From: Candidatus Omnitrophota bacterium
GTDB taxonomy: Bacteria; Omnitrophota; Gorgyraeia; Gygaellales; Profunditerraquicolaceae
Length of the DNA stretch: 64,000 nucleotides
NCBI GenBank assembly: GCA_017992455.1
Contig: JAGOOP010000007.1
Span: forward strand, 2,335-66,334
Direction: 5' to 3'
In this document: positions 20,751 through 23,396 of the stretch, in pieces
Numbering within the stretch: the stretch's first letter is position 1
Layout: every line of letters begins with the position of its first letter
Position numbers and translations under genes: made by a program
The notes under the pieces: generated by a model
Told to the model about the DNA's origin: nothing
Database searches by the model: none
Seen by the model: only the letters and a program-made list of their open reading frames with translations

Positions 20751-23396
20751 CTACGCGATCACGTTTTTCAGTATCGCCTGTATCTTTTCAAACGCCGCTT
20801 CGATCCTGTCGGGCTGTGTACCGCCTGCCTGGGCAAAATCCTTCCTTCCGCCGCCGGACCCGCCGATCTCGGGCGCAACCTGCTTGATCATCGCCTGGGA
20901 ATCGATCGACGGGATGTTCGTCGCGATAATAAGATTCGCCCTGCCCTCGCCGCCTGACCCCAGGGCAATGACGACCCGTTGTTCCTTCTGCTTTATCAGA
21001 TCGGCGGCCTTGCGCAAAATATCCATATCGGCGCCCTGCAGCCGCTCCATGATGACCTTCACGCCTTTGATATCAGCCGCCCGGGCGATCAACCGGTCGA
21101 TATCGGCCGCCACGGACTGCAGCCGCTGGCTCGCCAGCTGCTTTTCCATGTCTTTGATGGTCTTGAGCCGCTTCTCGAGTTCGGAAACAGCCTTGTCAAC
21201 AGGAGCGCGCAAGGCCTGCGCCACGGCGCTCATTGCTTCCTGTTCCTCTTTCATGAGCCGATATGCGGTGCTGCCCGTTGCTGCCTCTATCCTGCGCACC
21301 CCGCTGGCAACCGAACTCTCGTGCAAAATTTTGAACAGCCCGATGAACCCGGTCTGGTCAAGATGCGTTCCGCCGCAGAACTCTTTCGAAACGCCTTCGA
21401 CGGAAACGACGCGCACCGTATCTTCGTATTTTTCAGCGAAGAACGCGAGCGCCCCTTGTTTACGCGCCTCCTCCAGCGACATCTCTCTTTTGGAAACCTG
21501 AAGGTTCCCGATCACCAATCCGTTGACGATCTCTTCGATCCGGTCCAGTTCCGGCTGGCTGACCTGCTTGAAATGCGTGAAATCGAACCGCAGTCGGTCG
21601 ACGCCGACCCACGATCCCTGCTGCTGCACATGGTCGCCGAGGACTTTGCGCAGGGCCGCCTGAAGCAGATGCGTTGCGGTATGATTGCGCGCGATCGAAA
21701 GCCTGCGTTGGACATCGACCTGTACTTGAGCCGGATCGCCGCTGTTGATCGTCCCTTCTTTGACTGTGCCGACGTGCAAAAAAACTTTCTCGAATTTCCG
21801 GGTATCCGCCACTTCGAACACGCCGGTCGCGGTCCTGATGAACCCCGTATCTCCGACCTGGCCGCCTGATTCCGCATAGAACACAGACGAATCAAGAATG
21901 AGCTTGGCTTCTTCTCCGGTCTGTATCCGGTCTGTTTCCTGCCCGTCCCTGAGTATCTTGATGATCTTTGCATCACCCGACACAGTTTCATATCCGGTAA
22001 AGACGGTCGCGGCAACATCCTTCAGGTGCGCTTCCTTCAGGTTGAACACGTCGCCCTGCATTGCGCTCTGCGCCTTGGACCGCTCTTTCTGCTGACCGAG
22101 CTCCTGATCATAAGCTTTTTGTGAAAACATTATCTTCTTCGTATTCAACCAACTAGCTGTCAAATCAACAGGTATCCCATGAGTATCATATAATTGAAAA
22201 GCAATTTTACCTGCTAAATCAGGATTTTGATTACGTTCAAATCCAGCAAATTTATCTTTGAGCAACTGAGTGCTAGTTTTTAAGGTCGCAATGAAGCTTT
22301 TCTCTTCAGCTAAAATAACGTCTGCAATATTTTCTTGCCTACGCACTAAATCAGGATATGGCACTTTCATTACTTGCGCAACAATAGGAACTAATTTATT
22401 CAAAAATGGTTCTTGCTGTGTTTTCCAGAGGCTAAAAATACATTTACGTATTAATTTTCTGATAACGTAACCACGGCCCTCGTTAGATGGTAAAACACCA
22501 TCATATATAGAAAAAGTTACGGCTCGCATATGATCCGCAATCGAATATATAACTGTATTGCTATAGAATGGTTTCCTTGCATCTACATCTTCAAGCTTAA
22601 GAACATATTCTTCAGATATCTGTCTGATCTCCTTGATTATGGGCTGGAACAGGTCTGTCTCGAAGTTGTTCGTGACGCCCTGCATGACCGCGGTGATGCG
22701 TTCAAGGCCCATGCCCGTATCGATATTTTTCTGGGGCAGGGGCTCGAGCACGCCGCCGTCCTTGCGGTTGAACTGCGTGAACACCAGGTTCCATATCTCG
22801 ATGAACCTGCCGCACGAGCATGCAGGCGAGCAGTCCGGTTTCTTACATCCGACCGACGGCCCGAGGTCTATGAATATCTCCGAGCAAGGGCCGCACGGGC
22901 CGTTGGGGCCGTTCTCCTTCGCGTCGGCAGGCCAGAAATTCTCGTGATCCCCGAGCCGGACGATCTTCGCCGCGGGGAATTTAACGTCATTCTTCCAGAT
23001 ATCGTACGCCTCATCGTCGTCCTTATACACCGAGACCCATAACCGCTCGGGAGCGATCGCAAGCTCCTGGGTCAGGAATTCCCATGCCCAGGCGATCGCC
23101 TCCTTCTTGAAATAATCCCCGAACGAGAAATTCCCGAGCATTTCGAAGAACGTGTGATGGCAGTCGGTCTTGCCGACTTTATCAAGGTCGTCGGTGCGCA
23201 GGCAGCGCTGAGAGCTCGCGGCGCGGGTAAAATCGGTGATCATTCCGAGGAACTGCTTCTTGAACTGGTTCATGCCCGCGGGAGTGAACAGGACCGTCGG
23301 GTCGTCCTTGGGCACCAGGGAGTCGCTTTCGGCTACTTTATGGCCTTTTGATCTGAAGAACTGCAGATATTTTTCGCGCAGTATGTCAGCTTTCAT
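20751..23396 (-). CDS. alaS: alanine--tRNA ligase
   Basis: 881 aa. [10 protein letters not shown], class II core, editing-domain HTATHLL and C-terminal DHHA1-like [12 protein letters not shown]. Confidence 0.95.
   Translation of the reverse strand: [881 protein letters not shown]
22108..22640 (-). other. AT-rich in-frame mosaic segment inside alaS
   Basis: Hand count gives 20/60 G+C at 22141-22200, against 34/60 at 22681-22740. The segment still encodes conserved AlaRS sequence ([32 protein letters not shown]). Confidence 0.7.

Follow-up and report, generated by a model that had tools for sequence, protein, structure and literature searches.

Probable in-frame exchange of the tRNA-recognition domain in an alaS gene of Omnitrophota

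How does an essential gene come to contain, without any interruption of its reading frame, a domain-sized segment whose base composition and codon usage differ sharply from those of both flanks? The question is raised by alaS, the gene for alanine--tRNA ligase (AlaRS), in a stretch of 64,000 nucleotides (nt) of contig JAGOOP010000007.1 from Candidatus Omnitrophota bacterium (assembly GCA_017992455.1), which was analysed as a whole and is referred to as the window. A preliminary description based on the DNA letters had located a segment of low G+C content at 22108–22640 and had attributed it to intragenic recombination with the alaS gene of a low-GC donor. On the basis of the data presented here we consider it probable that alaS is a natural mosaic, in which ca. 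535 nt encoding the tRNA-recognition domain were replaced in frame by DNA of a distant low-GC lineage. The domain replacement and its boundaries are directly visible in the comparison with other strains of the same species. The replacement is recent, because the codon composition of the block has not drifted towards that of the host and the flanks diverge by only ca. 0.7% from those of the sister strains.

An AT-rich block within alaS

The gene extends over positions 20751–23396 of the minus strand and forms one unbroken open reading frame (ORF) of 881 amino acids (aa), as established from the ORF list and from Pfam and structure matches. Its product, P0001, is recorded once in the database, as the alanine--tRNA ligase of a Candidatus Omnitrophica metagenome-assembled genome (MAG) on a contig of 66,382 nt. 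It displays the bacterial AlaRS architecture PF01411 + PF07973 + PF02272 (tRNA-synt_2c, tRNA_SAD and DHHA1) and matches the AlaRS structures of A. aeolicus and E. coli with E = 1e-116 to 1e-118. The native 5′ part, codons 1–252 (22641–23396, minus strand), codes for the catalytic (aminoacylation) domain; it is 100% identical on the protein level to P0002, the homologue of the sister strains, with a nucleotide identity to the sister allele of ca. 1.00 in 20-codon windows and a G+C content at third codon positions (GC3) of ca. 0.8. The native 3′ part (20751–22067, minus strand) comprises the linker, the editing domain and the C-Ala domain and shares 98–99% aa identity with P0002. Between them lies the foreign AT-rich block, codons 253–430 (22107–22640, minus strand), which encodes the tRNA-recognition domain (most of Mid1 and Mid2) and was delimited by GC3, by sequence identity and by a maximum chi-square test.

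The G+C content, calculated in 120-nt windows, amounts to 0.325–0.375 between 22120 and 22659 and to 0.45–0.67, mostly 0.53–0.63, in the flanks of the gene. This drop resides in the third codon positions: GC3 is ca. 0.25 in codons 253–430 (range ca. 0.00–0.45) versus ca. 0.78 (0.6–0.95) in the rest of alaS, while the values for the first and second positions are almost unchanged across the block. For the entire stretch, 300-nt windows yield a mean G+C content of 0.541 with a standard deviation of 0.056. The minimum within the alaS block is 0.343, and equally low values recur only in an island at the end of the contig (61.3–64 kilobases, kb) and in the intergenic region near 33 kb. Codon usage changes in parallel. 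An index of the codon adaptation index (CAI) type, with six neighbouring genes as reference, yields 0.38 in the block compared with 0.73 in the flanks of alaS, and host-rare codons account for 19% of the block versus 2% of the flanks. The low-G+C segment of the preliminary description thus coincides with codons 253–430, its composition is shifted by each of these measures, and the frame is, as described, continuous.

Likewise sustained was the view that the segment is neither an insertion element nor an intein. The block consists of AlaRS sequence throughout and is only 10 codons longer than the corresponding version of the relatives; we therefore rejected an intein, a mobile intron and an insertion sequence as candidates. 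The extra codons are found in the first variable stretch of the block (22560–22607, minus strand), where the alignment shows gaps of 4 and 7 codons; one codon being absent elsewhere, the net gain is +10 (881 aa versus 871 aa in the relatives).

Comparison with sister strains and location of the junctions

The next protein matches to P0001 are P0002 (89% identity) and P0003 (88%), each consisting of 871 aa. Six contigs encode P0002, among them those of three NCBI MAGs and one Logan assembly. Four same-species assemblies from other samples show 98.7–99.7% nucleotide identity to the window over 29397–22627 and again over 22067–14751, the blastn match to L002–L005 resuming at 22067 with 99.4–99.7%. 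The intervening 559 nt (22068–22626) are not alignable by blastn to the 529 nt present at this place in the same-species assemblies. The gene order in these contigs is that of the window, i.e. smc, GGDEF, recA, htrA, recX, alaS, hisD and hisB. Near-identical flanks together with the same gene order imply that the P0002 contigs belong to the same species and carry a different alaS middle, which bears out the proposed recombination at the level of sister genomes.

The three parts of the gene also differ in their nearest relatives. The aa identity to P0002 is 1.00, 0.51 and 0.98 for residues 1–252, 253–430 and 431–881, respectively. P0002 is the nearest relative of the N-terminal (1.00) and C-terminal (0.99) parts, whereas the middle part is closest to P0021 with an identity of only 0.56. 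A formal breakpoint test was overwhelmingly in favour of intragenic recombination. A two-breakpoint maximum chi-square scan of the codon alignment with L002 delimited a block from 22643 to 22068, inside which 243 of 543 positions differ compared with 14 of 2067 outside; the maximum chi-square of 941 has to be seen against a highest value of 35 in 200 permutations (Fisher p = 1e-167). The same scan against L006 placed the block at 22625–22092.

The junctions could be defined by including L006 (P0003), whose flanks are 95–98% identical and which carries a third middle block with host-like GC3. This block follows P0005 and P0009 to about the same degree as the C-terminal part of L006 and therefore looks native. 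According to the alignment with L002 and L006, the 5′ junction zone (...F-Q-P | I-I-K-E-I...) lies at 22625–22643 of the minus strand. Up to CAG CC the window is identical to both L002 and L006 and then departs from both at once. L002 and L006 remain identical to each other for ca. 15 nt beyond this divergence point, which indicates that the sister allele has its own 5′ breakpoint slightly downstream. In the 3′ junction zone (...Y-D-Q-E-L-G-Q | Q-K-E-R-S-K..., 22092–22106, minus strand) GC3 returns to the host level, as deduced from the codon alignment, the site patterns and the end of the maximum chi-square block against L006 at 22092. Native sequence resumes in the window at ca. 22100. At 22068–22091 (minus strand) the site patterns reveal a native remnant, in which the window matches the native-like L006 while L002 is still foreign; between 22068 and 22100, 13 sites are shared by the window and L006 to the exclusion of L002, and 2 by the window and L002 to the exclusion of L006. 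The extent given in the preliminary description therefore holds for the AT-rich part, but the divergence from the sister strains continues for ca. 38 nt more, to 22068 on the minus strand, and these 38 nt are native in the window and foreign in the sister allele.

The middle block of the sister strains is itself atypical, with a GC3 of ca. 0.43 versus ca. 0.78 in its own flanks. Its best middle-domain match reaches 73%, and no close donor was found for it. Because of the different 5′ and 3′ breakpoints and the site pattern at 22068–22100, the window block and the sister block can be attributed to two separate events, each replacing a native-like allele, with breakpoints that are close together but do not coincide. 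The alignments thus demonstrate at least three different middle-domain alleles in near-identical backgrounds. As the sister allele is present in at least four independent assemblies, mosaics at this position of alaS are real biology. The block boundaries coincide with the limits of the structural domain and fall within short conserved motifs (on the 3′ side QQK-RSK...MQGDVF).

Integrity of the tRNA-recognition domain

The assignment of the block to residues ca. 253–430 and to the tRNA-recognition domain, made before from the sequence alone, was corroborated residue for residue by alignment to solved AlaRS structures. From end to end the block aligns with the helical tRNA-recognition domain of the A. 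aeolicus and E. coli enzymes, as well as with residues 336–466 of the A. fulgidus enzyme. In A. fulgidus AlaRS, Mid1 (258–419) and Mid2 (420–484) clamp the acceptor stem and read the G3:U70 base pair (PMC8464048). All 22 block columns that are invariant across 58 Omnitrophota AlaRS sequences are kept in the window allele (22/22), including D288 and H289, P303 and N305, R308, G309 and Y310, and D404, T405, G407 and P409. An AlphaFold model of residues 1–470 predicts a helical block with predicted local distance difference test (pLDDT) values of mostly 85–97. Lower values of ca. 65–70 are confined to the surroundings of the extra codons near residues 265–280. As judged from alignment, invariant residues and predicted fold, the tRNA-recognition domain encoded by the block is intact, and the chimeric AlaRS is presumably active.

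Search for the donor

The origin of the block was pursued in several sequence collections. In a HMMER search of 1.84 billion cluster representatives the best block match was 60% identical over 134 residues. When four concatenated copies of the 178-aa block were used as query against 5.8 billion proteins, the source protein was returned with 385 bits and the next best match with 205 bits, at 51–62% identity; every named block match in this search was from Omnitrophota. The best local alignments of the middle part do not exceed 62% over ca. 150 aa, and full-length alignments do not exceed 56% to anything. Pattern scans for the block in GTDB genomes, JGI metagenomes and IMG/VR gave only 27–33% relatives or nothing, and a tblastn search of the block against phage records yielded matches of at most 44%, which look like bacterial sequence within those records. 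A phage origin was rejected, since nothing close occurred in the viral contigs of IMG/VR or in the phage records. Neither blastn nor tblastn detected a second copy of the block in the window.

The closest middle domains (P0283, P0039 and P0284) are encoded on Omnitrophota contigs with a G+C content of 40–46% and share ca. 68% nucleotide identity with the block. The contigs of these low-GC relatives exhibit the same order recA-(htrA)-recX-alaS-hisD-hisB, with htrA being absent in L012. As there is no close match and the closest middle domains reside in Omnitrophota of 40–46% GC, the donor probably belongs to an unsampled lineage of still lower G+C content within or close to Omnitrophota, in line with the low-GC donor originally envisaged.

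Recurrence across Omnitrophota

Mosaicism of this kind does not seem to be confined to the species of the window. We surveyed pairs among 242 full-length homologues, of which those named by source are mostly from Omnitrophota. Thirty-six AlaRS pairs are at least 0.90 identical in the N-terminal and at least 0.85 identical in the C-terminal part, and in 11 of these 36 the middle domain is below 0.70. Identity profiles point to two especially variable stretches at residues ca. 250–280 and 360–430. The pair L015/L016, originating from different JGI samples and having 43% GC, may serve as an example. Its flanks are mostly 0.92–1.0 identical on the nucleotide level, except for a drop to 0.70–0.75 at codons 451–481, and its middle part is only 0.38–0.65 identical in two sub-blocks at codons ca. 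245–270 and 355–435. The pairs P0056/P0329 and P0065/P0291 have the N-terminal and middle parts in common, but not the C-terminal part. The window alaS appears to be one case of recurrent alaS mosaicism in Omnitrophota; this recurrence across the phylum and the foreign nature of the sister allele go beyond the preliminary description.

A further candidate is the alaS gene of P0039 (L013, 1029–3689), in which the middle part has a GC3 of 0.17–0.37 versus ca. 0.4–0.7 in the flanks. The closest relative of its middle domain is at most 56% identical, and the gene probably represents a mosaic of this type that arose independently. At the protein level P0013 behaves in a comparable way.

Exchanges were also noticed outside alaS. 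Compared with L016, the hisB gene of L015 (6918–7523) is 73% identical, whereas recA, htrA, recX and hisD are 97–99% identical; hisB is thus a whole-gene replacement two genes downstream of the mosaic alaS. In the window, 49 single nucleotide polymorphisms (SNPs) relative to L002 accumulate within 1 kb at 27000–28000, the region of the GGDEF/GAF gene, and long SNP-free stretches relative to L002 lie at 17000–19500 and 20000–21000. The cluster looks like a within-species recombination tract. From the hisB exchange and this cluster, frequent recombination seems to be general in these populations, and alaS seems not to be unique in this respect.

Many matches of ca. 640–670 aa in public assemblies, among them P0129, P0131, P0132 and P0135, are partial AlaRS sequences that start shortly ahead of the transition from the catalytic to the middle domain. 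Split alaS genes were considered and rejected, as the inspected matches of ca. 650 aa (the same four) lack a start methionine, begin within a domain and represent truncated proteins; the source name of P0129 includes the word “partial”. They suggest that contigs often break where a very conserved stretch of alaS meets a strain-variable one.

Proposed origin of the mosaic gene

A scenario consistent with these data would begin with the uptake of DNA by horizontal transfer from a low-GC relative, with a middle domain closest to Omnitrophota types. Crossovers, or the ends of a conversion tract, would then fall into the conserved motifs at both edges of the domain and, alaS being essential, only those recombinants would survive in which reading frame and domain limits are preserved. 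Near the junctions, the alaS flanks and proxy low-GC Omnitrophota alaS genes have longest exact matches of 10–17 nt. These would fit a microhomology-mediated or multi-step exchange better than a simple RecA-dependent double crossover, and recombination of this type is plausible. The shortness of these matches for classical homologous recombination is at the same time one of the points that weigh against a natural mosaic. Others are that the AT-rich allele is derived from one assembly only (one cluster member, one contig), that no donor or second copy emerged from any collection searched and that a strain-specific stretch of ca. 33% GC (61861–64000) occurs at the end of the same contig.

Some of these points would equally be accounted for by an assembly or binning chimera, in which alaS reads of a co-occurring AT-rich organism were threaded into the host alaS at conserved motifs. 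Chimeric joins are possible in the conserved genes of MAG contigs, the last 2–4 kb of this contig, with their equally low G+C content, are absent from the same-species genomes, and the many database AlaRS fragments beginning near the boundary of the N-terminal and middle parts suggest frequent assembler forks. However, both junctions are in frame and homologous, and the composition switches within a few codons without any long shared stretch. The smallest k usually applied by metagenome assemblers is 21, and the exact flank matches of 10–17 nt to the proxy genes fall below this value, which makes an artificial joining unlikely. Moreover, the native sequence beside the 3′ junction differs from the common sister allele, no AT-rich organism with this block was detected in any searched collection, and the same kind of mosaic exists as the sister allele in at least four independent assemblies and in other lineages (L015/L016). 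Taken together, we regard a chimeric contig as rather improbable. Divergence in place, i.e. alteration of the native middle domain by AT-biased hypermutation or fast diversifying evolution without foreign DNA, would explain why a donor was not found and could invoke the strong variability of the stretches ca. 250–280 and 360–430 even between near-identical Omnitrophota AlaRS. Yet the substitutions between the block and the native-like allele comprise transitions and transversions at a ratio of 109:111, which is not of the deamination type. In conjunction with the indels (net +10 codons) this balanced spectrum speaks for a divergence of long standing and against local hypermutation. None of the invariant residues has been lost, as expected under long purifying selection, the window contains no repeat or template copy, and a divergence of 45% in the block cannot accumulate by point mutation in the same time as 0.7% in the flanks. 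An origin in place is accordingly highly improbable. A diversity-generating retroelement target or silent cassettes were rejected as well, in view of the lacking second copy in the window and the presence of all substitution types plus indels.

The 561-aa LAGLIDADG intein in smc of this genome raises the question of whether the block is the footprint of a homing element, either as the co-conversion tract of a past intein or intron in alaS or as a mobile unit by itself. We attach hardly any probability to this idea, because the alaS alleles examined (full-length homologues of 830–940 aa) are free of intein, intron and endonuclease sequences, the block is ordinary AlaRS sequence throughout and the breakpoints differ between the alleles. 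A proposal of another kind concerns the force behind the exchanges: the tRNA-recognition domain of Omnitrophota AlaRS might be kept polymorphic by selection, with exchangeable domain alleles being swapped repeatedly, and the pattern would then be more than a neutral consequence of frequent recombination. The three alleles, the two independent replacements, the 11 discordant pairs and the lack of close donors allow this proposal. The neighbouring hisB replacement in L015/L016, however, suggests general recombination and does not demand selection, and we consider selection conceivable but unlikely. Pressure on this surface could come from a toxin, from a factor of phage or host, or from changes of tRNA-Ala; the window contains no tRNA genes and hence no nearby candidate for a co-varying tRNA-Ala. 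If selection did maintain the alleles, they would indicate a hitherto undescribed pressure on the recognition of tRNA-Ala. A natural mosaic with a replaced tRNA-recognition domain thus remains our preferred explanation for the window alaS.

Relation to known systems and implications

Mosaic penicillin-binding protein (pbp) genes of pneumococci contain in-frame divergent blocks in an otherwise near-identical essential gene, have known close donors and are under antibiotic selection. The alaS mosaic likewise resides in frame in an essential gene and was detected by clustered differences. In contrast to the pbp genes, where the divergence is typically far lower, its block is ca. 45% divergent, displays a GC3 shift of 0.5 and stems from an unsampled donor. 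A second related phenomenon is that of aminoacyl-tRNA synthetase homeoalleles, divergent forms of the same function within a higher taxon that are swapped in the same neighbourhood via conserved flanks (PMC3191353; Andam, Williams and Gogarten). The neighbourhood recA-(htrA)-recX-alaS-hisD-hisB is indeed common to all three alaS alleles and to the low-GC relatives. Homeoalleles were, however, described for whole genes (TyrRS, ThrRS and SerRS), whereas here one internal domain, 178 of 881 codons, is concerned and the role of the conserved flanks falls to the adjacent domains of alaS itself.

The exchanged block corresponds to a module that is also found outside AlaRS. In bacterial (alpha-beta)2 GlyRS a structurally related tRNA-recognition module sits on a separate subunit (PMC8464048). 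That split is an ancient architecture, unlike the recent exchange between strains described here, and no split alaS was found. By analogy, the same module exchanged in alaS suggests that it may be able to work with a partner with which it has not co-evolved. A full-text literature search retrieved no publication describing mosaic alaS genes or the present pattern in Omnitrophota. The kind of event, sub-gene recombination in an essential gene, is already known, and the alaS case is a clear but not an unprecedented one.

The locus represents a natural experiment, in which a domain with ca. 50% sequence difference and foreign codon usage works with, or at least persists beside, the native catalytic and editing scaffold. 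It bears on the modularity of AlaRS and on the sequence distance tolerated in within-gene recombination. alaS is often used as a vertically inherited marker, and the mismatch of the middle domain is a warning for Omnitrophota phylogenies and strain typing. In addition, the junction between conserved and variable stretches in alaS is a likely break point for metagenome assemblies.

Other features of the contig

The low-GC stretch at the end of the window begins at 61861, and the contig runs on to ca. 66.4 kb. The stretch contains an ORF of 473 aa (62340–63761, minus strand) without a Pfam family and with a GC3 of 0.31, similar to that of the alaS block. In four same-species contigs the similarity to the window (97.4–99.8%) ends at 61860, and a TPR-like gene of 1374–1401 aa is found there instead. 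The contig end could be a second real acquisition or AT-rich DNA of another organism joined into the assembly. Short stretches of low G+C content (0.36–0.44) are also present at 32900–33400, in the intergenic region between smc and a response-regulator gene, and at 4900–5300.

The intein of smc (27878–32962) lies at 31169–32851 of the minus strand and interrupts the P-loop of SMC (GPNGCGK|C...VHN|S). Its assignment is based on Intein_splicing and LAGLIDADG_3 Pfam matches on a sister-genome protein of identical length, and the intein also occurs in the same-species genomes, where the proteins are 1694 or 1665 aa long.

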